DNA of 64,000 bases. Source: an uncultured Alphaproteobacteria bacterium (lineage in GTDB: Bacteria; Pseudomonadota; Alphaproteobacteria; RF32; CAG-239). This document shows, one piece after another, positions 2,994 to 44,641 of the stretch. Numbering within the stretch: the first letter of the stretch is position 1; each line of letters opens with the position of its first letter. The stretch lies in NCBI GenBank assembly GCA_934271465.1, contig CAKQRQ010000007.1:14858-78857 (forward strand). Reading direction: 5' to 3'. Position numbers and translations under genes: made by a program. A model generated the notes under the pieces. That model worked only from the letters and a program-made list of their open reading frames with translations. It was not told the DNA's origin and did not search any database.

Positions 2994-3443
2994 ATGCTTG
3001 ACGCCCAAAAGTTACAAGAGCTGAAAGACAAAAACATTTTGTCAGAAGAAGAACTAGTTGAAGAAAAACATCGCCTAGCGGCCCGAATCTTACACAAAGA
3101 AACCAAACCGGCCGCAAAAAACGGCATTGTCTATATTCTGTTGGCTTTTTTCTTAGGGGCCATCGGTATCCATAACTTATATGCAAAATATTGGAAACGA
3201 GGATTCTTTCAGTTCTTTTTAGCTCTAATTTCGCCTTACATGCTATTCATTCCGTTAATATTTACAGGATTCTGGGCATTACTGGAACTTTTATTTGTAA
3301 ACCGAGGCCCCGATGGAACCTTATTCTCTGGAAACAGGCGGATTATATGGCTTTTAAGGGTATTCGCCGTCCTGTCCGTTGTATGGTTTGCCTCATCGAC
3401 AGATATGGTTGTGCAAGATGTTAATCTGGATATTATGGAATAA
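2994..3443 (+). CDS. TM2-domain membrane protein
   Basis: There are two TM helices with the conserved G-x-x-G-x-H-x-[FY]-Y core (FFLGAIGIHNLYAKYWKRG) that is typical of TM2 domains. Confidence 0.55.
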   Translation: MLDAQKLQELKDKNILSEEELVEEKHRLAARILHKETKPAAKNGIVYILLAFFLGAIGIHNLYAKYWKRGFFQFFLALISPYMLFIPLIFTGFWALLELLFVNRGPDGTLFSGNRRIIWLLRVFAVLSVVWFASSTDMVVQDVNLDIME

Positions 3444-3508
3444 TTTAAATTTTTTATAAAAAATGCTTGCAAAATAAAAAATATATGCTAATTATCATTT
3501 CACATGAT

Positions 3509-3584
3509 GCGGGTATAGCTCAGGGGTAGAGCGCAACCTTGCCAAGGTTGATGTCGTGGGTCCGAATCCCATTGCCCGCTCCAT
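3509..3584 (+). tRNA. tRNA-Gly (GCC)
   Basis: It folds as a cloverleaf with a GCGGGTA/TGCCCGC acceptor stem, a D-arm AGCTCAGGGGTAGAGC, an anticodon loop CTTGCCAAG (anticodon GCC), a T-arm GGGTCCGAATCCC and an encoded CCA. Confidence 0.85.
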
Positions 3585-3596
3585 TTAAAACAAAAA

Positions 3597-3628
3597 ATGC
3601 TCCCTTACGGAGCTTTTTTTGTTTTAAA
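3597..3628 (+). terminator. Rho-independent terminator downstream of tRNA-Gly
   Basis: The hairpin GCTCC-cttac-GGAGC is followed by a run of seven T. Confidence 0.55.
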
Positions 3629-3648
3629 CTCAAACATTCATCATCCAC

Positions 3649-3702
3649 AACAAAACCCGCCACAAGGCGGGTTTTGTTGTCAATGGCGGATAGACAGGGA
3701 TT
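3649..3702 (-). repeat. Degenerate duplicate of the terminator hairpin plus the last ~19 nt (3' acceptor/T-arm end) of tRNA-Ser
   Basis: It reads aaacccgccacaaggcgggttttgttgtcaaTGGCGGATAGACAGGGATT. The copy at 3832..3888 reads aaacccaccacaagggcaggtttcgtgttttaaTGGCGGATAGACAGGGATT. The 19 nt identical to the tRNA 3' end are preceded by a related strong hairpin. Confidence 0.6.
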
Positions 3703-6801: not shown

Positions 6802-7812
6802 ATGATTATCGGCATCCTCAAAGAGGCTTTTCCAAAAGAAACGCGCGTTGCGGCCACACCTCAAACAACCTCTGCCTTCAAAAAAGCCGGATTTGACATT
6901 TGGGTAGAGCAATCTGCAGGAATCAATGCCGGTTTTGATGACGCTTTCTTCAAACAAGCAGGCGCCCAAATCAAAAAAGACAAAAAAGAAATCTTAAGAA
7001 ATGCCGATATTATCCTTAAAATCAACGCCCCAGACAAAGATGAAGCCATCCTTTATAAACCCCAAACGGTTCTTATCGGCAATCTTCAAAATTTGACACC
7101 TCAGACTTTTGAAGAACTCAAAAAAAAGCTCATAACCTGCTTTGCGCTTGAAAAAATGCCGCGCATCTCCCGAGCTCAACCCTTTGATATTCTATCCTCC
7201 CAAAACAACCTTGCCGGTTATCAGGCTGTCATCAAAGCCGCTTCTTTATCCCAAAAATCTTTCCCGATGATGATTACTTCAGCTGGGACGCTTCCCCCGA
7301 TTAAAGTCCTTGTCACAGGCATTGGCGTTGCCGGACTTCAGGCCATTGCCACAGCCAAACGCCTCGGCGCAAAAGTCTACGCCTATGATATCCGAGAAGA
7401 GGCCAAAGAACAAAGCCAGTCATTAGGAGCCGTATTTATCGAAAACATCAAATCTTTTTTACCCGAAACCGATATATTAATAACATCAGCATTCAGCACC
7501 GGAAAAAAAGCCCCATTACTAATAAAAAAGACTGATATCGATTCTATGCCCTCAGGTGCCGTCCTCATAGATATGGCTGCCGAATTTGGCGGAAACATTG
7601 AAGGCTCAATCAATGGACAAACAATTTTCCATCAATCAAAATTAATTGACGGAAACAGCCGCCTCGAAACTGAAATTCCGATGTCTGCAAGCACTTTATT
7701 CGCAAATAACTTGTTAAACTTTGTCAATTTTTTGACTTCAAATGCAACAGACAAAATCTCCGCCGATATGACGGATCCGCTTCTCAAAGAAACCTGCATC
7801 ATGAAAGGATAA
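6802..7812 (+). CDS. pntAA: NAD(P) transhydrogenase subunit alpha part 1 (PntAA, dI domain)
   Basis: The alanine dehydrogenase/PNT N-domain ([18 protein letters not shown]) and the NAD-binding [18 protein letters not shown] motif are present. Two small downstream genes complete a split three-gene pnt. Confidence 0.85.
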
Positions 7813-17541: not shown

Positions 17542-19233
17542 TTAATCGCACGGCTCCGTAAAACTTTTTTTAAGCCCGTTTACCGTCACAATCGGCGCAT
17601 CAGGATTGACTGTCGTTAAAAATTTTCCGTCGGAAAAATTTTCAACCCCAGATATATCCTCTGACGCTTTATCTTTTGTACACCACATAATAAAGTTCGT
17701 AACACCGCCATATGGGTTTTCAGAATTAAAGCTAAAAACACTGTTCATAGAACTAAAAGTCAAATCTTTCAAATTAATAATCGTTACATCACGCCCATCT
17801 TCTGAAACAATAGCAACAACACCCACAGCCCTTTTGCTGCCGTCATAATCCTCGGCTTTTCCAAAAGTCTTGTCCTCATACATCACATCTCCAACTTTAG
17901 GCATTGTCCCATTCAGATCAAGATTCAACCTTAAAGAAAGTCTGATGACGCTGGAATAATTGTTCTTAAAATGGGTTGTCCTGTGACCATTTCCCGCATT
18001 AAAGCGCCAAGAACTACTTGAAGCGTTTTCAGAAGATGTCCAATAATATTGATTTTTAAAAGCCTCTGCCTCAACACCTTTAGCGGAAAGCTTATTCAAT
18101 GCCGCATTAATCAGATTCTTGTTATCGCCGTTGGCCCCTGTCGAACCTGCACCATCAATCATTTGTGTTATGTTTGTTCCGTAAAACTCCATCCACTCAC
18201 CGATTGACGGCAAATACCATTTTCCTTGGCCAAAATCTCCTGCCATGTCGCCAACATAAAACTGCATTGCCGCATAAGCGGCTAAAGCTTTTTCGCCAAG
18301 CTGAGCAACAACAGCTTTTGTATTCGCTTGACCATTATACAAACCATCTGGCCTTAATCCTGAGCCGCCGACAGATGCCGTTTTAACACCATCCACAAGC
18401 CCAACAACTCCATAAATATTCTTACCACCACCGGCAATCATTCCAACATTAGCAATCGATACATTATCCGTATGTGTTACAATTCCTGCCAATACTGTAT
18501 CTACTCCACCACTCAAATTAATTCGAACATTTCTAATTTTTGCCGACTTAGTCACCCATATTGCATCCAATTCATCAGCAATTTGACTTGACATATAAAT
18601 CGAAACATTTTCAATAACTGCGTTTGTTCCCTCAAGCCTGAGAGCTCGACAATAATCTTTATTATCATTTTGTATAATTACAACTTGACGCAAGCTCATA
18701 TTTTTACCATTAGAATAAATTGAATGAGCAAAAAGTTCTTCCGTTGCGCGATTTTTAAGCACTATATTTTCAAACGTTACACTATCGGCATTAGCAAATA
18801 AACCGTCCGTCTTAAGCACGTGACCGCCGCCGTTAATTATAACAGAAGAACCTCTAAATGTAAAAGAACTATTAAACACAACATCTTCCGCCAACACAAT
18901 TTTTGCATTATTGGTATTCAATAATTTTTTAAATTCATCAATCGTCGTGCTCTGCGTCACTTTAGTATAACCTTGCGCAACAAGCTCATCTACATTGTCC
19001 GTCAGAGTCACGCTGTCCGACAAATCAGCATAATCCAAATCCCCGCAGAAAACAGTATTATCATCTTTGATATTAAACGGGCACGGGAGCACATCTTTTT
19101 CAAAACAAGAGCATTGAGTGCGGGTCTGGGTATAGCCCAGTTCAGCACAACTTGGACGCTGCAAACAATCGGTTGAAGCGTAAGTATTTGAAATTACACA
19201 AAGTAAAAAAAGCAAAATAAAACCGTGTTTCAT
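17542..19233 (-). CDS. Secreted Cys-rich surface protein, paralog 1. It has a signal peptide, a Cys-rich N-module, a beta-helix-like repeat region, a DUF1566/Lcl-like W-x-L-P-S-x-x-E-W module and a C-terminal KxGDVMY...FAVSEDG module.
   Basis: The first ~70 aa are near-identical to the 27389..29275 ORF. The motifs GDFGQGKWYLPSIGEW and KVGDVMYEDK...GVVAIVSEDGRDVTIINLKDLTFSS are shared with that paralog. Repeated N-x-x-I-x-N segments suggest a parallel beta-helix. Confidence 0.7.
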   Translation of the reverse strand: MKHGFILLFLLCVISNTYASTDCLQRPSCAELGYTQTRTQCSCFEKDVLPCPFNIKDDNTVFCGDLDYADLSDSVTLTDNVDELVAQGYTKVTQSTTIDEFKKLLNTNNAKIVLAEDVVFNSSFTFRGSSVIINGGGHVLKTDGLFANADSVTFENIVLKNRATEELFAHSIYSNGKNMSLRQVVIIQNDNKDYCRALRLEGTNAVIENVSIYMSSQIADELDAIWVTKSAKIRNVRINLSGGVDTVLAGIVTHTDNVSIANVGMIAGGGKNIYGVVGLVDGVKTASVGGSGLRPDGLYNGQANTKAVVAQLGEKALAAYAAMQFYVGDMAGDFGQGKWYLPSIGEWMEFYGTNITQMIDGAGSTGANGDNKNLINAALNKLSAKGVEAEAFKNQYYWTSSENASSSSWRFNAGNGHRTTHFKNNYSSVIRLSLRLNLDLNGTMPKVGDVMYEDKTFGKAEDYDGSKRAVGVVAIVSEDGRDVTIINLKDLTFSSMNSVFSFNSENPYGGVTNFIMWCTKDKASEDISGVENFSDGKFLTTVNPDAPIVTVNGLKKSFTEPCD

Positions 19234-19450
19234 AAGATAAACCCCTTGGTTGACACATCGTTTCTAGCGTTTAAACCAACGTTTAAACGCTATAGTCATT
19301 TGCAAAAGATTTTGAAAAATGCACTTTTTAAGAGAATCGATAACACGTTGAAAAATAACAAAAAATTAAAATTATTGCTTTTTTAATAATTGGCTGATAT
19401 ACTAAAAATAATAGAGCGTTTAAACGTTGGTTTAAATGCTCTATTTTGTG
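19234..19450. promoter_or_regulatory. Candidate invertible promoter element, copy 1 (coordinates +/-1). Two 28 bp dif-like sites (11 bp arm, 6 bp spacer, 11 bp arm) lie in inverted orientation around a sigma70 promoter.
   Basis: Site a (~19264..19291) is TAGCGTTTAAA-CCAACG-TTTAAACGCTA. Site b (~19414..19443) is AGAGCGTTTAAA-CGTTGG-TTTAAATGCTCT. The arms are palindromic and the spacers are reverse-complementary. Between them, on the + strand, lies TTGCTT-17 nt-TGaTATACT (an extended -10), which points away from the minus-strand gene. Confidence 0.55.
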
Positions 19451-22252: not shown

Positions 22253-22437
22253 CGGTGGCTTAAAAAGCAACCATTCTAATTAATAAATCTTCCCAACAAT
22301 ATAGTCTGGAAAGATATTGGACTCAACCATCGGATTTTCCGCACAACGCCAAATAAAAGCATTATACAGAGGGCTACCCTTTGGAGGAACTTCTTCACGT
22401 TCTGCCACGATATACCCTGTCATACCGCCAAACAGAG

Positions 22438-23271
22438 TCAAGCACGTAGCAATTCCGGCTCTTTGTGCCCAAGGATATCTGTTCCGAGAGTATCCCCCAC
22501 CATCAGCATCTTACTGCGGTCAACGTTGACTCCTTGCAGAAGGAAGTCAAAGATCTGCGGATCTGGTTTACCATAAAGATAAACTTTACCGCCCAGAGCC
22601 TGATAGGTCTTAACAATAAGCCCAGGCCTTACAACAAACCGTCCGCCCTCGTTCGCCCGAAGATCTGGATTACAACAAACCATAGGCAACCCGGAAACGA
22701 GACACTTCTTAATCTCTGGGATAAAATCCTCAAGCATTATACGATCCTGATAATTAATTTGAGGAATTCCCGCATAGATAAAGTCCGCCTCGGAAATGTC
22801 TTCGGTCACAGAGTAAATCGTGCCTTTGAACATATCAGGAAGTTTGTCATCCGGTCGTTTGAAGTTGGCAGTCCCAAAGACATACATCTTTGTTCCTTTC
22901 ACCGGCAAAGCCCCTTGCTGAGCAACCTTGTTGCCATACTCACCCGAGGTCATTACCGCATCATAATGAACACCTTTAAGGAGCCCCTTCTTGGCATATT
23001 TAGTTTGCGTATTTACTGCTCCGGCAGAAGAATTAGACAAAATAAGAACCATCTTGCCAGCTTCCCGTAAAGCTTTCATTACTGCAACTGCTTCAGCAGC
23101 AATCCCATCCGAAAAAGTAAAAACGCCATAAGCATCAAGGATAATGACATCATAACCAGACGCAATATCCCAAAATTTTTTGTTCCATAACAATTTAAAA
23201 ATTAGACATAATTTGAAGAAATTAAAGCATAAATGCAAAATAAAATCAAACAAAATTTTCCTCAAAATCAA
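22438..23271 (-). CDS. HAD-superfamily subfamily IIA hydrolase. The listed ORF is truncated by a probable -1 frameshift near its 3' end.
   Basis: Motif I is ILDAYGV. The GDxxxTDIxG motif is MVGDTLGTDILG. The conserved continuation GAQRAGIATCLTLFGG...GKIY* is readable only in the -1 frame, starting in the GGG run at ~22468 and running to a stop at ~22281. Confidence 0.6.
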   Translation of the reverse strand: MILRKILFDFILHLCFNFFKLCLIFKLLWNKKFWDIASGYDVIILDAYGVFTFSDGIAAEAVAVMKALREAGKMVLILSNSSAGAVNTQTKYAKKGLLKGVHYDAVMTSGEYGNKVAQQGALPVKGTKMYVFGTANFKRPDDKLPDMFKGTIYSVTEDISEADFIYAGIPQINYQDRIMLEDFIPEIKKCLVSGLPMVCCNPDLRANEGGRFVVRPGLIVKTYQALGGKVYLYGKPDPQIFDFLLQGVNVDRSKMLMVGDTLGTDILGHKEPELLRA

Positions 23272-23372
23272 AAATTTTAATATAACTCCTTAAAAAACTC
23301 TTGCCTTTATCTTTTTTTTATTCTAAATATATCCCTGCCGATAGAAATATCGACTTTTACCACAATAATCGT

Positions 23373-23447
23373 TGGGGTGTCGCCAAGTGGTAAGGCATCG
23401 GCTTTTGGTGCCGACATTCGTTGGTTCGAATCCAGCCACCCCAGCCA
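23373..23447 (+). tRNA. tRNA-Gln (TTG)
   Basis: The sequence TGGGGTGTCGCCAAGTGGTAAGGCATCGGCTTTTGGTGCCGACATTCGTTGGTTCGAATCCAGCCACCCCAGCCA has a U1-A72 pair, anticodon loop CTTTTGGT (UUG) and an encoded CCA. Confidence 0.9.
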
Positions 23448-23570
23448 CAGTTCAAAAATCGTCAGAAATGGCGATTTTTTCTTTATAAATCAAGTGTTTA
23501 AGCCAGTTCAAAGATTGAGCACTAAATATACATTACACCGGATAATCTTCGAACTACTTCTATCAAAAAT
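23441..23570. repeat. attL-like direct repeat. It covers the 3' end of tRNA-Gln plus ~125 bp downstream and is repeated at 25611..25740.
   Basis: It has about 75% identity over ~130 bp to 25611..25740. Shared segments include ccagccaYagttcaaaaatcg...gattttttctttataaatcaa...atcttcgaactactt. Confidence 0.65.
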
Positions 23571-23703
23571 TTAGCACAATCAAGGTGTTATGAAAATTGC
23601 TTCTTCCTTTTCTTAGTATTCAAAAGAGATCTTATTTTTGTTGCATTAAAAATTTTTAAAACTAATATAGGTTTATATTAAACCAAAAATAAAGGAACTA
23701 TAA

Positions 23704-24540
23704 ATGCCAGGAAAAACAATACAAATATTTTTACCAGATGGAAATCCTAAAGGTGTTAAAAAAGCTTCAATAACTACTGATAAAGTGGAAGTAATTCAAA
23801 TACCAAGAGCCTCCCTTTCTGAAAACAATAAATTGTTGGCGTTTAATGGTGTTTATATTTTAGTTGACAGTCTCAAAGTTGAAAAACCTGAAATTTATAT
23901 AGGTAAAGGTGATGTTAAAAGCAGGACATATTCTCACGATAACAAAAAAGATTTTTGGAATATGCTTTTTGCCATCAGATTAAAAGATGAAACCGGATTC
24001 AATGATGCTCATAACAGCTACCTTGAATACTACTTCGTAAAAAAATCTCATGATCTTAATCAAGCTATCATGAATGAAAACAAACAACTCCCAAAATGTC
24101 CTAATCTCACAGAAGAAATTCTTTCTGAATTATCCTATTATATTCAAACAATTGAAATTCTTTTATCAACATTAGGATTAAAATGTTTTCAGCCCTTGGA
24201 AAATCATGAGAAATCAGAAAAAGATATTTTTGTATGCACTGATAAATATAATAACATCGGTAAAGGGGAATATACTGAAGAAGGATTTTTATTATATAAA
24301 GGTTCCATCTGTAAACTAGAATTGCATCCAGGAACTGATAAGCTATCTCAACGAGATGAAATGATTGCTTCCGGATTATTGAAAAAACAAGGTGGCCATT
24401 ACATTTTGCAAGAAAATAAACTCTTTGCATCCGTATCTTCCGCAGCCGCTATTGTATTAGGTAGAAGAGCCAATGGTTGGCTAGAATGGAAAAACAGCGA
24501 AGGCAAAACTCTTGACGAATTAGAAAGAAAACATTCTTAA
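23704..24540 (+). CDS. GIY-YIG family nuclease with a C-terminal DUF4357-like domain
   Basis: NGVYILVD is followed 14 aa later by EIYIGKGDVKSRTYSH, giving the GIY...YIG core with a following Arg. Downstream acidic and Asn residues fit the motif. A ~60 aa C-terminal domain (ILQENKLFASVSSAAAIVLGRRANGWLEW) is of the type usually fused to such nucleases. Confidence 0.6.
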   Translation: MPGKTIQIFLPDGNPKGVKKASITTDKVEVIQIPRASLSENNKLLAFNGVYILVDSLKVEKPEIYIGKGDVKSRTYSHDNKKDFWNMLFAIRLKDETGFNDAHNSYLEYYFVKKSHDLNQAIMNENKQLPKCPNLTEEILSELSYYIQTIEILLSTLGLKCFQPLENHEKSEKDIFVCTDKYNNIGKGEYTEEGFLLYKGSICKLELHPGTDKLSQRDEMIASGLLKKQGGHYILQENKLFASVSSAAAIVLGRRANGWLEWKNSEGKTLDELERKHS

Positions 24541-24614
24541 GTTCAATATAAAGTGGATTTTATTGCCAAATTTTGTTATAAATGATTATATAACTGCCAT
24601 ATCTATTTTGGTCA

Positions 24615-25454
24615 TCAATAGTTTTTCTTAATCTTTTCAAAAAAAATAAGAGCTTCATCGCTAAGACCAACATTCTTTATATTATGAACAAATTTGAGAC
24701 CAGCATTAAATATTGAATCATCTTTTTTATAAAAATGTTGTAGCAACATATACATATAACGTGGTTCAATTATTTGTTGACCATCAAAATACTTACCACA
24801 GGTAATATGGTAAATTGAACTAGCAACAGCATCTGCAAGGGTTAATAAAACTTCATCTTCTTTTTCTTTAGTATAAATATTTTCTTCTTTAATATTACTA
24901 AGATAATATTTCCATTTTTCTTCTTTTTGCTTATCTCTTCTTACCTTATTGATGTAATGCTTAAATCCTTCCAATGATATAGATTTACTATTTTCAATAA
25001 TAAACAAAGTTTTATCTGGATCAATTTTATTGTAATAAATATATTTACTTATCCTTTCAAAAAGAAAAATAAGATTTTTATGATAATAACTTGTTATGTT
25101 TTTTGGATCATAAGCAAGTTCTCCTTTTTCATCTCTAAGTGTTCTTTTATTTGATATTGTAGCAAATGCTGTAAAATTTGTATTTTTGGATATTGTTTTA
25201 AGGTAAAATAACTTATCATAGTGCTTACTCATATCTGTAAAATGCAATTTTTTAAGTCCTAAAACAGATTTAATGTACGTCAGTTGTCCTTTAATATTTT
25301 CTATTTCTTTCTTCTCAACAAATACGGCACTAATATTTAAAAAATCTTCAGCACCATATCCTTTACCATCAGATAACTTTGTGTATGCGGCATTTCCACT
25401 TTCATCAATTAAAACAAAATATTCATATTGATCATAATTTATTACTTCGGTCAT
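24615..25454 (-). CDS. DUF3800-like protein
   Basis: The N-terminal YEYFVLIDESGN matches the [FY]-x-D-E-S-G signature characteristic of DUF3800. Its size is typical for that family. Confidence 0.5.
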   Translation of the reverse strand: MTEVINYDQYEYFVLIDESGNAAYTKLSDGKGYGAEDFLNISAVFVEKKEIENIKGQLTYIKSVLGLKKLHFTDMSKHYDKLFYLKTISKNTNFTAFATISNKRTLRDEKGELAYDPKNITSYYHKNLIFLFERISKYIYYNKIDPDKTLFIIENSKSISLEGFKHYINKVRRDKQKEEKWKYYLSNIKEENIYTKEKEDEVLLTLADAVASSIYHITCGKYFDGQQIIEPRYMYMLLQHFYKKDDSIFNAGLKFVHNIKNVGLSDEALIFFEKIKKNY

Positions 25455-25610
25455 TATTATTCCTTTATTATTATTTTCAGCAGTTACTTAGTAACTTAGG
25501 ATTTTATTTATCAAAACGCAAGCACCTAGCTTATTTTAAATTAACCCCTGTTTCTTGATACCCTGAAGTCAAAAAAATACTCAACCTAGTCCGCGGATTG
25601 CGAATTCACT

Positions 25611-25740
25611 CCAGCCATAGTTCAAAAATCGCCATTTTTGACGATTTTTTCTTTATAAATCAACAACTTAACCGAGTCCGAAAATTTATATCATTACAGG
25701 CTTAAATACGAATCATCTTCGAACTACTTTTTATAATATT
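25611..25740. repeat. attR-like direct repeat (partner of 23441..23570)
   Basis: See the left repeat. It includes a hairpin AAAAATCG-ccatttttga-CGATTTTTT whose loop is the reverse complement of the loop in the left copy. Confidence 0.65.
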
Positions 25741-26284
25741 CCTTATTTTTCAATAATTTAATTAAAGCCAACCTTTGGGGATAATCATTTATTCAAAGTC
25801 GGATTTGAAACTTTCTTAAAATGAAAGTTTTGGACATTGGCGACGATTTATTTTGCTGATGAAGAAGGTGTGTTATCAGCACAGGGACTGCCTATCCCGT
25901 CTGTGGCTCGGCTACTCCTATCCCATATCCGCCAGCTTGGACGGCTCCCCTCCTGCGGCTAGCTAATCATCAGCCAGTAAACAGCCTCCTTAAATCTGGA
26001 CAAGGCCTTTACGTGCGAGGAGTTAAAATCAGCACAGTTACCTTTAGTAAGAAGCCTAAACAAAAAGAGAAGTCGAAACCTCTCTTTTATAAAGAAACCT
26101 CCAGCCCTTAAGGGCAAGAGGTCTAAATATCATTTTTAAGTATTGAGATTTACTTTAAGCGGTAAGTCCCTTGTTCACCTTCGACTTTTTCAAGCAGATA
26201 AACTCATTATATAATATGCAGCATAACTTAAAGAACTAAATAATATATTTGAAAGTTATACAAACCTTACTAAATTACCGACAT

Positions 26285-26580
26285 TTTGAACTTTAGGATA
26301 TATACTTTCTTACATAGAACAAAACTTTTTATCTACAAGCGCACATCTTTTGAATATATCTCAAAGTTATATATTCTAAACATTTAGAATATATCCAAAG
26401 ATTATAAACAACTATATTTCATATTAATACATTTCAGAATATAGCTGTAAAGATAAAATTTATTATATACTTTAGCCTATATTATAGATACTTTTATCTA
26501 AAAAACAGCATTTTATAACATACCTGAAAGTTATATAAATAGCACCTTAGAATATATTCAAAAGATGTATATTAAAATTT
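26285..26580. repeat. Array of iteron-like short repeats. Class A is TTTAGAATATA(T). Class B is TTTTATCTA-N-A[AC]AG.
   Basis: There are at least 6 class A copies and 2 class B copies in about 300 bp of non-coding, ~25% GC DNA. Examples are catttagaatatatccaaag, cttttgaatatatctcaaag, tcagaatatagctgtaaag and ccttagaatatattcaaaag. Confidence 0.55.
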
Positions 26581-26771
26581 TTGAATAGAGAAGCTAAAAA
26601 GATTGAAAAGTTAATTTATTCAACTTAAGATTTTAATTATAGGAATCTTAACAATACAGCATTGTAAAATCACATCACAAAAAAAATAAAAATATGGAAA
26701 CATTTATAATGAAAGAAAGGTAATATTATGGGACATCAACTTTTTTAAAGGGTGGAGGGAATACAAAATTT

Positions 26772-27197
26772 ATGCTTGATATTTGGGCTAAAAGAGGAAT
26801 TATTTCATTACTAAAAGAGGCATATGAACGGGGCACTATTCTTTCAGGATTAAGTGCCGGTGCAAATTGTTGGTTTGATTGCTTTAGCTCAGACTCATTT
26901 TTAAGCGATGCGGATAAACAAGATTTCAATATTGCAAAAGAAAAATTAGCCATACTCAATGGACTGGGATATCTTAAAGGTGCGTTTTGTCCTCATTATT
27001 TGTTTGAAGCTTATAGACGCCCGGCATTTCTTTATCAAATTCAAAGGTTGAATATTACTGCTTATGGTGTAGATAATAATGTAGCTTTAGTCTTTGTTAA
27101 TGAAAAATTGAATAAAGTTATAAAAAGCCAACCTTTGGCTAAAGCGTTTAAAATTATATGTGAAAACGGAAAAATAATAGAAAAAGAAATTTATTAA
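26772..27197 (+). pseudogene. N-terminally truncated peptidase S51 (dipeptidase E-like) gene fragment
   Basis: ILSGLSAGANCWFD matches the S51 nucleophile elbow (G-x-S-A-G). It is only 141 aa against ~230 aa for intact S51 enzymes. A stop lies immediately upstream, and the fragment is flanked by repeat arrays. Confidence 0.5.
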
Positions 27198-27249
27198 TAG
27201 GGAATGCCTGTTAAAATTATCCCATAAGATTTTTTCAAATATCACCTTT

Positions 27250-27365
27250 CAGAAAAGATATACACTTTAGATTATACAACAAACCCTTTTATCTATACAG
27301 TTACAACTTTAGAATACGTCCTAAGGTTATATATATTAGACCTTTAGGTCATATCTTTTATATTC
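27250..27365. repeat. Second cluster of the same iteron-like repeats, on the other side of the S51 fragment
   Basis: It contains cactttagattataca, ccttttatctatacag and caactttagaatacgtcctaagg, matching repeat classes A and B. Confidence 0.5.
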
Positions 27366-27388
27366 AGATAATAAGCATCAAACAGCTT

Positions 27389-29275
27389 TCATTCAAATTC
27401 ACAACTACACCGACCGGATTTTTGAAGTGGTGGAACAATTTCGTTGATTTGCGTTATGCGCTGATAAGGTGCTAATGCCCACCTTATCTTTTGTGTCGTA
27501 TTACCGTAAGGATTTTCCGGATCAAAATTATCAGCCTTGTCCGTAGAGCTGAATGTCAAATCTCGCAACCCGATAATCTTAACCGTTTTACCGTCCTCTG
27601 AAACAGCAAAAACAATTCCGGCGGGCGTTCTGCTTCCGTCATACTTATCTGCCGAACCATAGGACTTATCCGTATACATCACGTCACCGATTTTAGGAAA
27701 TTCAGCCAATTGAGGGACATTTTGAACGATCAAAGCCACGCGGACATAGGCTGTTCCATGTTTCCATAGTTGCGGGTTTTCTCCCCATTTCAAATTTATC
27801 AATTTAATATAGTTAGAACCATCATAAGTTGTAAAATAAAGATGACTAGGCGTTGACTTATCCAAATCAAACGGTTGAGCTATTTCGCTGTCTGCAGCCT
27901 GTAATATACTCAATGAATTATTAATCCATGAAATATTGTTTCCAACCATTCCTTTTGTAAAACTCGTCATTTTAACTTTATTCGCGCCATAAATATCTGC
28001 CCATTCGCCGATGGCTGGAATATACCACTTTCCCTGTCCGAAATCTCCTGTCTTCTTCCCGACATAAAATTGGCTTGCAGCATAGGGCACAAGAGCATTT
28101 TTACCGATTTTTTCAACATTAAGATAAGTTACCCCATACCCATCATACAATTCTTTGGCATCCAGACACAATTCCTGACAATTTCCCAAAACACATTGCC
28201 CGCTTCCCAATTCATATCCTTCTACACAAGTTTTGCAGGAACAATCGTCATTATACGTCACGCAATTTTGTTGATAACACTGATCAAATTCACACGGACA
28301 GCCGCATGCCGATAAGAATCCGCCAATAAACTCCGACACATTCCACGCCAAAACACCGTCAACCATTCCGCCTCCATTGCGCCAACTTGTGACTTTTGAA
28401 GCTCCACCATACGGATTATCCATATCAAAATTATTAAGTGTATTATAATGACTAAAAGTCAAATTTCTTAATCCGATAAATTTAACATCTTTACCGCTGT
28501 CGGATACTGCAAAGATAATCCCGATAGGCGTTTTAGAGCTGTTATAAGCATCCGCCGAGCTAAAAATTTTATCCAAATATATCACATCGCCGATTTTAGG
28601 TTTTGTATCAACGATAGACAAGCCGCTCACACCTGAAACAACTCGCATATACCTTCCGTGCTCAAAGCTCCATTCCATTGAACGACGTCCTGTTTCGGGA
28701 TAAAATAACCATGTTCTTTGGCTGTCATTCAATGTTGATGACCAATACCCGCCAGTTTCCCATTCATCAGCTGCGGCGCCTTTGCTCTGCAGTGCCGAAA
28801 TAGAGCTATTAATCAGAGCTATATTTTCGCCGATTGCGCCTGATTTCTCCATTGCCGCTGTCATTTTATTAACATCTGTTCCATACAAATCCATCCATTC
28901 TCCGATAGACGGCAGCCACCATTTGCCTTGACCGAAATCCCCGCCTTTGTCGCCGATATAAAACAGGCTTGCCGCATAGGGTGCTAACATTCGGCTGCCC
29001 CAGCTTTCAACATACAACTTCGTATTGATTTCGCCATTATACAAAGACGATGTATCTTTGCACCTGCCTTTGCAATTCAAATCCCCGCAGAAAACAGTAT
29101 TATCATCTTTGATATTAAATGGGCAGGGAAGGACATCTTTTTCAAAACATGTGCATTGTTTACGCGTCTGAACATAGCCTAATTCTTCACAACTCGGTTT
29201 TTGCAAACAATCGGTTGAAGCGTAAGTGTTTGAAATTACACAAAATAAAAAAAGTAAAATAAAACCATATTTCAT
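27389..29275 (-). CDS. Secreted Cys-rich surface protein, paralog 2. It has a signal peptide and a Cys-rich N-module, then two tandem [DUF1566/Lcl-like W-x-[LI]-P-[SA]-I-G-E-W + KIGDV[MI]Y...FAVS[ED][DS]G] units separated by a Cys-rich EGF-like linker. I moved the start to MKYGFILLF.
   Basis: The N-terminal 70 aa are near-identical to paralog 1 (STDCLQ[KR]PSC[AE]ELGY...CPFNIKDDNTVFCGDL). GDFGQGKW[WY][LI]P[SA]IGEW occurs twice. PKIGDV[IM]Y.DK...G[IV][IV]FAVS[DE][SD]GK[DT]VK[FI]IGLR[ND]LTFS occurs twice. An RBS (aagggg) lies before the second Met. Confidence 0.7.
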   Translation of the reverse strand: MKYGFILLFLFCVISNTYASTDCLQKPSCEELGYVQTRKQCTCFEKDVLPCPFNIKDDNTVFCGDLNCKGRCKDTSSLYNGEINTKLYVESWGSRMLAPYAASLFYIGDKGGDFGQGKWWLPSIGEWMDLYGTDVNKMTAAMEKSGAIGENIALINSSISALQSKGAAADEWETGGYWSSTLNDSQRTWLFYPETGRRSMEWSFEHGRYMRVVSGVSGLSIVDTKPKIGDVIYLDKIFSSADAYNSSKTPIGIIFAVSDSGKDVKFIGLRNLTFSHYNTLNNFDMDNPYGGASKVTSWRNGGGMVDGVLAWNVSEFIGGFLSACGCPCEFDQCYQQNCVTYNDDCSCKTCVEGYELGSGQCVLGNCQELCLDAKELYDGYGVTYLNVEKIGKNALVPYAASQFYVGKKTGDFGQGKWYIPAIGEWADIYGANKVKMTSFTKGMVGNNISWINNSLSILQAADSEIAQPFDLDKSTPSHLYFTTYDGSNYIKLINLKWGENPQLWKHGTAYVRVALIVQNVPQLAEFPKIGDVMYTDKSYGSADKYDGSRTPAGIVFAVSEDGKTVKIIGLRDLTFSSTDKADNFDPENPYGNTTQKIRWALAPYQRITQINEIVPPLQKSGRCSCEFE

Positions 29276-29490
29276 GAGATAAGCCCCTTGGTTGACGCAT
29301 CGTTTATAGCGTTTAAACCAACGTTTAAACGCTATAGTCATGTACAAGGGATTTTGAAAAATGCACTTTTTAAGAGAATTGATAACGCATTGAAAAATAA
29401 TAAAAAATTAAAATTATTGCTTTTTTAATAATTGGCTGGTATACTCAAAACAATAGAGCGTTTAAACGTTGGTTTAAACGCTCTATTGCG
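29276..29490. promoter_or_regulatory. Candidate invertible promoter element, copy 2, about 90% identical to 19234..19450
   Basis: Site a is ATAGCGTTTAAA-CCAACG-TTTAAACGCTAT and site b is AGAGCGTTTAAA-CGTTGG-TTTAAACGCTCT. Between them on the + strand is TTGCTT-17-TGgTATACT, again pointing away from the minus-strand gene. Confidence 0.55.
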
Positions 29491-43737: not shown

Positions 43738-44553
43738 CTATTTCAAATTTTTTATCTGAACTTTCAATGTTATCCGATGCGTCTCGTGAGGAAGCAAACA
43801 GACAGCAAAATCTCCGACATTGGAAGGCTCTACACAAACAAAAGTTTTATACTGTCCTTCGCTCATTTCAGCCAAATCTTTAGCCGGATTCCAAACAACA
43901 GTTGTTTGCGAGCCGTTCTTTTCCAGCGTAATAATCCGCTCATATCCTTTATCGACAATCTCTATCGGATTAGTCTGATCCATAAAAACAGAATCAAATT
44001 CCCCGCGGATTGCTAACTCACCATCCAAAGTATATGTCTGGCCGTCCAGCGAATTTTTGTAGCAATGCCCTTTCAAGCCTTTTATAAGAATATTATTAAT
44101 GGAGCTGATATTAAAATAACAATGCAGCGCCTCGCTAAAACTAAAAGGCTCATCGCCGTTATTCGTCGTTTCAAGAGTATATTCCAATTTATCGGTCATT
44201 TTAATCAACAAACGCGCTGTTGCATCAAGTTTATATTTTTCATTAGGAATCAAAATAAATTCAGCTTCTGCTTTCTGTGCATCGGCTACCGTTTTTATTA
44301 CTCGCCAATCAGAAGTGCGGGCAACCCCATGCCGAGGTAAATGATTATTCAAATCTTCTGTGGCAAACCTCGGCCAACAGATAGGTATTCCGCCGCGAAT
44401 AGCTTGAGCATGATCAAATTTATTCAAATCCCCGACCCAAAAGATATCTTGATCAGTCCCTTTGGGACGATACGAAACCAATGTTGCTCCGAACAAAGCT
44501 ATTTTACACTCGGCCACACCGTTAGTTAAACAAACAAAATCTCTGTCAGTCAT
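43738..44553 (-). CDS. Aldose 1-epimerase family protein (YeaD-like D-hexose-6-phosphate mutarotase)
   Basis: It is 271 aa with YeaD-like conserved blocks (GGIPICWPRF, HGVARTSDWRV). Confidence 0.65.
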   Translation of the reverse strand: MTDRDFVCLTNGVAECKIALFGATLVSYRPKGTDQDIFWVGDLNKFDHAQAIRGGIPICWPRFATEDLNNHLPRHGVARTSDWRVIKTVADAQKAEAEFILIPNEKYKLDATARLLIKMTDKLEYTLETTNNGDEPFSFSEALHCYFNISSINNILIKGLKGHCYKNSLDGQTYTLDGELAIRGEFDSVFMDQTNPIEIVDKGYERIITLEKNGSQTTVVWNPAKDLAEMSEGQYKTFVCVEPSNVGDFAVCLLPHETHRITLKVQIKNLK

Positions 44554-44641
44554 ATCTCTGATATCCTTTTCCTCTTAGATTAAGAAGTTTACATCCGTCT
44601 GACGCTTTTCGCATCATTATTTATGCTTTTTGCACAAATCG

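Follow-up and report, generated by a model that had tools for sequence, protein, structure and literature searches.

The 64 kb window analysed here, a stretch of one contig of an uncultured alphaproteobacterium from the gut, carries a 2.17 kb islet directly behind an intact tRNA-Gln gene (Table 1). The interior of this islet holds only two long open reading frames (ORFs), which are convergent and separated by 74 bp: ORF A, a GIY-YIG/DUF4357 protein, and ORF B, a DUF3800 protein. Positions follow the numbering of the window, and labels such as L001 denote the compared loci and contigs from other genomes and metagenomes. A repeat search returned two pairs of matching segments at the locus, 23437-23516 with 25607-25686 (80 nt, 79% identical) and 23539-23559 with 25709-25729 (21 nt, 90% identical). 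Given that both pairs are spaced by 2170 nt, they form a single collinear direct repeat of ~124 nt and ~80% identity, in which the last 11 nt of the tRNA gene and the following ~113 nt recur 2170 nt downstream. In a repeat scan of 11.5 kb with a minimum of 60 nt it was one of only two repeat families. The right copy opens with CACTCCAGCCA, of which the counterpart in the tRNA gene is CACCCCAGCCA, and it is preceded by GATTGCGAATTCA (25596-25608), plausibly a decayed T-arm. The GC content is 28.4% for the islet (over 23448-25606) and 41.8% for the window; the stretch further to the right (26200-27400) is likewise AT-rich. No recombinase was found in the islet, as judged from the ORF listing, or in the whole window, as judged from phmmer searches with six recombinase queries. 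The original prediction, which was made from the sequence of this locus, had described an AT-rich interior with two convergent genes only, a direct repeat starting in tRNA-Gln, a degenerate tRNA 3' fragment at the right end and the lack of an integrase, and all of these features were borne out.

Whether such an islet was indeed inserted can be judged from its close relatives. We found gut-metagenome contigs of the same species through an identically encoded neighbouring HAD-IB protein, compared ten of them with the window by blastn and aligned the junctions. The tRNA-Gln(UUG) gene is present in every one of these conspecific contigs. In two of them (L005 and L009) it is followed by a single repeat copy and then by the match of window position 25607 onward, which represents the empty site (the L009 contig stops within that copy). 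In L002, a SwaI-like endonuclease and an N6/N4 methyltransferase lie between two repeat copies, and in L004 one orphan gene of 277 amino acids (aa) occupies the site. A prophage with a large serine recombinase abuts the tRNA gene in L003, and L001 and L006 carry other recombinase-bearing elements, that of L006 with SNF2, DUF4391 and methylase genes; the recombinases encoded by these three occupants (L001, L003, L006) are serine recombinases. The left flank is 99.5-99.8% identical across L001-L005 and L008-L010 and 97.4% identical in L006, and the right flank, where present, is 92.7-97.7% identical. A right flank more diverged than the left one is the pattern expected under repeated exchange of foreign DNA.

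The islets of L002 and of the window have their arms in common, the right one from 25587 onward, and differ in their cargo; the L002 islet ends in sequence similar to the right-end motif, and the islets of L015 and L004 end in weaker versions of it. The two-gene module (23524-25576) recurs with 91.8% nucleotide identity at a tRNA-Gln(CUG) gene beside lepA (L015-L017), in surroundings unrelated to those of the window, where the right end is a degenerate repeat of that other locus. The distal part of the left arm (23524-23597) is also common to the L015 islet. Finding the module at a second tRNA-Gln gene favours the view that insertion is directed site-specifically to tRNA-Gln 3' ends, in addition to exchange through flanking homology. 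In viral contigs, the conserved left-arm motif had no match. The islet is inserted at the 3' end of tRNA-Gln(UUG), and this spot acts as an integration hotspot in the gut bacterium under study. Adjacency to a tRNA 3' end, direct repeats, deviant composition and an empty site are all present, as in other tRNA-targeted islands, and an integrase of its own is not encoded. The prediction of an inserted, integrase-less element at tRNA-Gln is supported by the empty site (L005, L009), the other cargo (L001-L004, L006) and the second tRNA-Gln gene (L015).

ORF A has a match to Pfam DUF4357 (E=4e-20; 71.9 bits, with a gathering cutoff of 38.4). It has no match of its own to Pfam GIY-YIG (PF01541) at E<=1; among 55 relatives searched at E<=0.01, DUF4357 was matched by all 55, RAMA by 47 and PF01541 by 24 (best 4e-6). 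In an AlphaFold2 model (predicted local distance difference test score, pLDDT, 91.8), a small beta domain at the N-terminus is followed by a central domain and by a C-terminal domain rich in beta structure, and the GIY-YIG alpha/beta fold is present. The N-terminal beta domain is conserved, with the motif TIQIFLPDG. In the alignment of the 55 relatives Y51, Y65, R74 and E108 are invariant, and I66, G67, H78 and N126 are found in at least 90%; by their spacing, Y51, Y65-I66-G67, R74, H78, E108 and N126 would correspond to the canonical GIY-YIG set of candidate catalytic residues. No match to ORF A was found in NCBIfam, searches of PDB sequences with ORF A or its profile gave nothing meaningful, and in PHROGs it matches one family only, of unknown function. 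In PADLOC, ORF A matched all five models of PDC-S14, the best one at full length (E=4.1e-73, residues 2-275 of 278). PDC-S14 is a single-gene candidate of PADLOC-DB v2, and the PDC systems are defence candidates put forward on the basis of 'guilt by embedding' (PMC10855318). We found no phenotype for PDC-S14 in the published literature, so that membership of this class says nothing on mechanism.

Relatives of ORF A are found in at least 523 species genomes from many phyla and on 37 plasmids, where they are annotated as 'GIY-YIG nuclease family protein', and in only 6 viral contigs. Their commonest neighbours are restriction-modification (R-M) genes, namely ResIII, Methylase_S, N6_Mtase and HSDR_N. 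On plasmids pSR56 of Salinibacter ruber (L127) and pBUN2 of Bacteroides uniformis (L128) the relatives lie in or beside Type I R-M operons, and the gene order on pSR56 is hsdR, SprT, methyltransferase and GIY-YIG gene. Such plasmid examples indicate that the ORF A family is often linked to R-M systems. Within the islet, which encodes ORF A and ORF B only, Pfam finds a methyltransferase domain in neither gene. Fusions of GIY-YIG and RAMA domains have been proposed as candidate Type IV enzymes that depend on N6-methyladenine (6mA; PMC11037411). Judged from its sequence, ORF A may be a stand-alone candidate restriction endonuclease of a Type IV-like kind.

ORF B matches Pfam DUF3800 (PF12686) with E=3.4e-8 and 34.8 bits, above the gathering cutoff of 21. 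In its family D17 and E18 (both of the DESG motif), E133 and D208 are invariant; DESG resembles the DEAG of RNase HII, and the D-E-E-D set matches the pattern of the DUF3800 proteins of type VII retrons (PMC7736814). The DUF3800 family has been tied to type VII retrons and Cas12a2/Cas12a3 loci (PMC7736814, PMC10910872, PMC13594972) and to eleven RNA motifs (PMC5737381). Pfam detects neither a TPR nor a reverse transcriptase domain in ORF B, PADLOC and NCBIfam give no match, and a PDB sequence search gave nothing meaningful. An Rfam scan of 23300-26300 at E<=10 returned the tRNA and chance-level matches only, hence no DUF3800 RNA motif, and the intergenic regions of the islet show no folding signal of a structured RNA (fold z-scores from +0.4 to +0.8). 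The ORF B branch is rare, with 17 clusters in an indexed search, 7 metagenome loci retrieved with a 10-sequence alignment and 109 representatives at E<=1e-3 among 1.84 billion proteins, and the family is absent from the viral contigs and plasmids searched. Given its predicted RNase HII/HIII-like fold, ORF B would be a nuclease for RNA:DNA hybrids or for some other nucleic-acid intermediate formed by an invading element.

Another question regards the relationship between the two genes, whose pairing the original prediction had likened to the layout of small anti-phage or toxin-like modules. We sought DUF3800 genes with a hidden Markov model of the ORF B branch within 6 kb of ORF A relatives, and found none at any of 80 loci. 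Pfam assigns the 127 genes that flank ORF A relatives to 143 families, among which no partner is constant and DUF3800 does not recur. The closest relatives of ORF A (L020, with 92% amino acid identity, L021, L025 and L026) share with the window only 23635-24548, at loci with no tRNA gene and no DUF3800 gene within 6 kb. Similarly, an ORF B of 83% identity occurs in L011-L014 in the absence of ORF A, sharing only 24588-25542, and faces a gene of unknown function that encodes 150 aa. In L011 this gene (6884-7336, minus strand) has a hydrophobic N-terminus and converges on the solitary DUF3800 gene; for it and for the 277 aa gene of L004 (11650-12483, minus strand), Pfam, PADLOC and PHROGs gave no match. 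ORF A and ORF B stand together in one islet lineage only, that of the window and L015-L017. These separate occurrences make each gene a self-contained cassette. An obligate two-gene system does not hold, and the two genes are stacked, an arrangement common among defence genes. The prediction had itself stated that the idea of a system would fall if relatives carried the two genes at unrelated loci and never adjacent, and this is largely what was found. Its assignments of GIY-YIG/DUF4357 and DUF3800 were right (by Pfam matches, predicted folds and the PF01541 matches of the relatives), and so was its remark that the pair is not a named system, but it had not recognised that ORF A alone is a PADLOC candidate.

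Table 1. Features of the tRNA-Gln islet and its borders, in positions of the 64 kb window.
Feature	Position	Strand	Basis
tRNA-Gln, anticodon UUG, intact, integration target	23373..23447	+	ARAGORN (ttg); Rfam tRNA, 61.6 bits
Left direct-repeat copy: last 11 nt of the tRNA, terminator hairpin, ~80 nt further	23437..23559		Repeat search
Whole islet, 2170 bp, absent from the empty site, 28% GC	23448..25617		L005 joins the tRNA straight to the match of 25607 onward
Left arm of the islet	23448..23597		89% to L002 islet (unrelated R-M cargo), blastn and alignment
Terminator-like hairpin directly 3' of the tRNA	23454..23479	+	Sole terminator-like site in 23300-25900
Stretch recurring alone as single-gene ORF A unit (gene and ~70 bp upstream)	23635..24548	+	blastn to L020, L021, L025, L026
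ORF A, 278 aa; N-terminal beta domain, GIY-YIG domain, DUF4357/RAMA-like C-terminus; PDC-S14 family	23704..24540	+	
Stretch recurring alone as single-gene ORF B unit (gene, 27 bp downstream, 88 bp upstream)	24588..25542	-	blastn, 86% to L011-L014
ORF B, 279 aa; DUF3800, predicted RNase HII/HIII-like fold	24615..25454	-	
Right-end motif with degenerate tRNA-like 3' fragment GATTGCGAATTCACTCCAGCCA (25596-25617)	25587..25617		Sequence, blastn
Right direct-repeat copy, the one resembling the single copy at the L005 empty site	25607..25729		Repeat search, junction alignment

On balance, we consider it probable that the region is a recombinase-less defence islet of 2.17 kb at a tRNA-Gln hotspot, with two self-contained single-gene cassettes that do not form an obligate pair. 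It would thus be an ordinary defence islet, and a new instance of the small integrase-less defence islets of tRNA hotspots. It would most likely have arrived when a recombinase supplied in trans, as from the serine-recombinase elements found at this site, inserted it site-specifically into the 3' end of tRNA-Gln; later spread among strains may have occurred by homologous recombination through the flanks. Each cassette carries its own upstream region. ORF A, which comes with no methylase, would select foreign and possibly adenine-modified DNA through its DUF4357/RAMA-like domain and cut it with the GIY-YIG domain, and ORF B would cleave RNA:DNA hybrids or related intermediates of the invader. 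Nonetheless, several points weigh against this explanation. The defence role of both genes is a prediction, PDC-S14 being a 'guilt by embedding' candidate (PMC10855318). The dependence of ORF A on modification is likewise putative, and its RAMA match (residues 207-274) scores 23.4 bits, under the gathering score of 35.2. The search of the window for a recombinase that might act in trans found none. The crossover can be placed only approximately within the att-like repeat, and the left junctions of L015 and the window differ over the first ~75 nt past the tRNA. Moreover, the pair has been kept together in two different loci, and an Mrr nuclease converges on a DUF3800 gene of 50% identity in the hotspot of L104 and again in L126, which hints at coupling.

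Coupling is indeed what the main rival proposes. A loosely coupled module, in which the ORF B branch is a promiscuous accessory of restriction-type nucleases and here works with the GIY-YIG/DUF4357 nuclease, is in our opinion possible but doubtful; ORF B might then step in as a back-up once restriction has been blocked, or supply the nuclease with processed nucleic-acid intermediates. We examined ten distinct contexts of the ORF B branch, and in eight of them a restriction or modification gene lies within two genes. DUF3800 closes a Type I operon in L018 and Type II operons in L100-L103 and L110; in L019 it overlaps the end of a preceding hsdS by 4 bp. In two contexts (L104 and L126) a Mrr_cat nuclease is convergent with it at a distance of ~15 bp, and in two others (the window and L015) PDC-S14 is convergent with it. 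GmrSD_N lies upstream of it in L108, and in L107 the upstream genes are Mrr, a KAP NTPase and a Fic-HTH gene, 2 bp after which DUF3800 starts. The same Fic-DUF3800 arrangement is found with no Mrr in L109 and L123. The remaining contexts are L109, with only the Fic-HTH gene, and L011-L014, with neither a restriction nor a Fic gene. L104 represents the same hotspot in a relative, recognised by a Peptidase_S51 gene 93% identical to window 26751-27194 and by a contig end with the module found downstream of the tRNA; there, too, a nuclease on the plus strand converges on DUF3800 on the minus strand, and the nuclease is not homologous to ORF A. Such uniform restriction-type contexts are why we keep the coupled accessory as the main rival. 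However, the ORF A relatives have no DUF3800 neighbour at the 80 loci, and the 83% identical ORF B adjoins the 150 aa gene, which has no nuclease match. The Fic-linked contexts (L107, L109, L123) contradict a strict linkage to restriction, adjacency in defence islands is expected even when no functional link exists, and the ten contexts on which coupling rests come with no background rate. On this basis the coupled accessory counts as a lead, not as a result.

Alternatively, the cargo could be of an addiction or toxin-like nature with no anti-phage role, one or both nucleases stabilising the islet or hitch-hiking as selfish genes. Both genes do enter unrelated loci as single-gene units, variable spots nearby hold toxin-type genes (Zeta toxin in L119, Fic beside DUF3800 in L107 and L123), and PDC-S14 was not enriched in the phage-resistant strains of one Pseudomonas aeruginosa panel (PMC10855318). 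Still, we regard this alternative as improbable, given that the islet has no partner gene of antitoxin size, that ORF A is frequent in cellular genomes, next to R-M genes, and rare in viral contigs, and that the other small cargo of the hotspot includes a bona fide R-M system. An obligate toxin-antitoxin pair was rejected. The RNase H fold is common to DDE transposases and integrases, and ORF B could therefore be a recombinase, that is, the mobility enzyme of the islet itself. An islet with no recognised recombinase and a unit of ORF B only, inserted by itself in L011, would fit such a role. Yet the repeat search found no terminal inverted repeats around 24588-25542, the relatives in R-M operons are co-oriented with their neighbours and overlap or abut them, unlike a transposase, and the L002 islet shares the ends but lacks DUF3800; a transposase was rejected, and we hold a mobility function of ORF B to be very improbable. 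The least credible explanation, to which we attach next to no weight, is that the repeat is a local tandem duplication unrelated to insertion. Slippage does happen at such loci, as the 68 nt tandem partial duplication of the tRNA gene in L015 demonstrates. This idea is nevertheless contradicted by the single-copy empty site of the conspecific contigs and by the recurrence of the interior at the other tRNA-Gln gene, and was rejected; the interior also differs by 13 points in GC content, and unrelated cargo stands between the same repeats in L002.

Our preferred explanation, an islet of two separate defence cassettes, can be set beside systems already described. Islets with no integrase at tRNA genes, bounded by att-like repeats, are familiar as cis-mobilisable elements (CIMEs) and decayed genomic islands. 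With these the islet shares the targeting of a tRNA 3' end, direct repeats, deviant GC content, variability between strains and the lack of a recombinase of its own. It differs from CIMEs in that its repeat is unusually long and diverged (~124 nt, ~80%) and its left arm is common to an islet with unrelated cargo; mobilisation would in its case proceed in trans. PrrC and RloC are accessory nucleases in Type I R-M loci, and they offer an analogy only: the ORF B branch likewise repeatedly ends or adjoins restriction systems, a statistical link that stands on ten contexts, and ORF B is related to them neither in sequence nor in fold. Among GIY-YIG nucleases, R.Eco29kI, the UvrC N-domain, T4 EndoII and I-TevI have the catalytic fold and the Tyr, Tyr, Arg, Glu and Asn positions in common with ORF A, at identities of 15-26% over 66-91 aligned residues and with different accessory domains; Eco29kI is moreover paired with a methyltransferase, whereas ORF A is not. 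The GIY-YIG-RAMA fusions follow the same two-domain logic as ORF A, whose islet contains no cognate methylase (PMC11037411). In contrast to these fusions, ORF A has a DUF4357 C-terminus with RAMA below threshold and an additional N-terminal beta domain. ORF B has the Pfam family, a predicted RNase H2-like fold, the D-E-E-D set and the location in defence loci in common with the DUF3800 proteins of type VII retrons and the TPR-DUF3800 proteins of Cas12a2 and Cas12a3 loci (PMC7736814, PMC10910872, PMC13594972), but a reverse transcriptase, a TPR domain and a CRISPR array are all missing from the islet, and the neighbours of the ORF B branch are of restriction type. Finally, the RNA motifs DUF3800-I to DUF3800-XI adjoin DUF3800 genes (Weinberg et al., 2017; PMC5737381), and none of them was found at the islet.

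Additional observations concern the tRNA gene and the surroundings of the islet. The hairpin in the right repeat copy (25624-25649) is close to the reverse complement of that in the left copy (23454-23479; 96%), forming an inverted pair, and either orientation of the loop occurs among other strains, which suggests an inversion of the hairpin or a bidirectional terminator swapped between strains. In L015 (2230-2380), tRNA-Gln(CUG) is followed by the 68 nt partial duplicate of itself, with the junction at GTTTAA, a string common to the D-arm and the downstream sequence. Upstream of tRNA-Gln in the window lies a HAD-IIA hydrolase gene (22257-23291; ORF 22438-23271, minus strand) that is absent from nine of the ten conspecific contigs, where ~63 bp stand in its place; a Zeta_toxin/AAA_33 gene takes this place in L119. 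This gives the tRNA gene a variable spot on its other side as well. The tRNA-Gln region as a whole is bracketed by a direct repeat of 300 nt (19032-19331 and 29074-29373; 88% identical, 10,042 nt apart). This repeat covers the 5' ends and upstream sequences of two minus-strand ORFs, 17542-19233 (563 aa) and 27389-29347 (652 aa, Cys-rich and with internal repeats), and probably represents paralogous gene starts.

To the right of the islet, a GC-rich segment of ~160 nt (25840-26000) is kept in other strains. It lacks an ORF, an Rfam match and a fold signal on either strand, and may be what is left of a gene. The AT-rich stretch beyond it (26240-26580 and 27259-27333, 21-31% GC) contains repeat families of 26 nt and 37 nt and an inverted pair of 45 nt, which flank a truncated Peptidase_S51 ORF (26772-27197, 141 aa; the gene of L104 is full-length, 254 aa). 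In L104, 2346-3146 corresponds to window 43777-44577 and 3229-3673 to window 26751-27194. Given that these genes are adjacent in L104 and ~16.5 kb apart in the window, the stretch of ~27.2-43.7 kb of the window is inserted or rearranged relative to L104.

What do these findings mean for the bacterium and for the two protein families? For an uncultured gut bacterium, the site is a natural and clear-cut case of a defence hotspot, with a single tRNA-Gln gene found in at least six states: empty, with PDC-S14 and DUF3800, with a Type II R-M system, with an orphan gene, with a prophage and with larger recombinase-bearing elements. A further proposal, tentative and on the whole unlikely, is that the ORF B branch is a general RNase H2-like partner of restriction systems (GIY-YIG/DUF4357, Mrr, Type I and Type II) and that the tRNA-Gln islets are a family of integrase-less cassettes. 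If so, ORF B would add a second activity, for example as a back-up on failure of restriction or by attack on RNA:DNA intermediates, and the cassettes would share arms (~150 bp on the left, ~25 bp on the right) while swapping defence cargo between strains and between tRNA-Gln genes. For the GIY-YIG family, ORF A is a candidate of ~280 aa that could be used to probe the proposed RAMA-type reader in Type IV restriction. ORF B, in turn, is a stand-alone DUF3800 candidate of ~280 aa for experiment. DUF3800 has long been an unexplained family, and the repeated siting of the ORF B branch by restriction genes offers a concrete and testable lead to its function.

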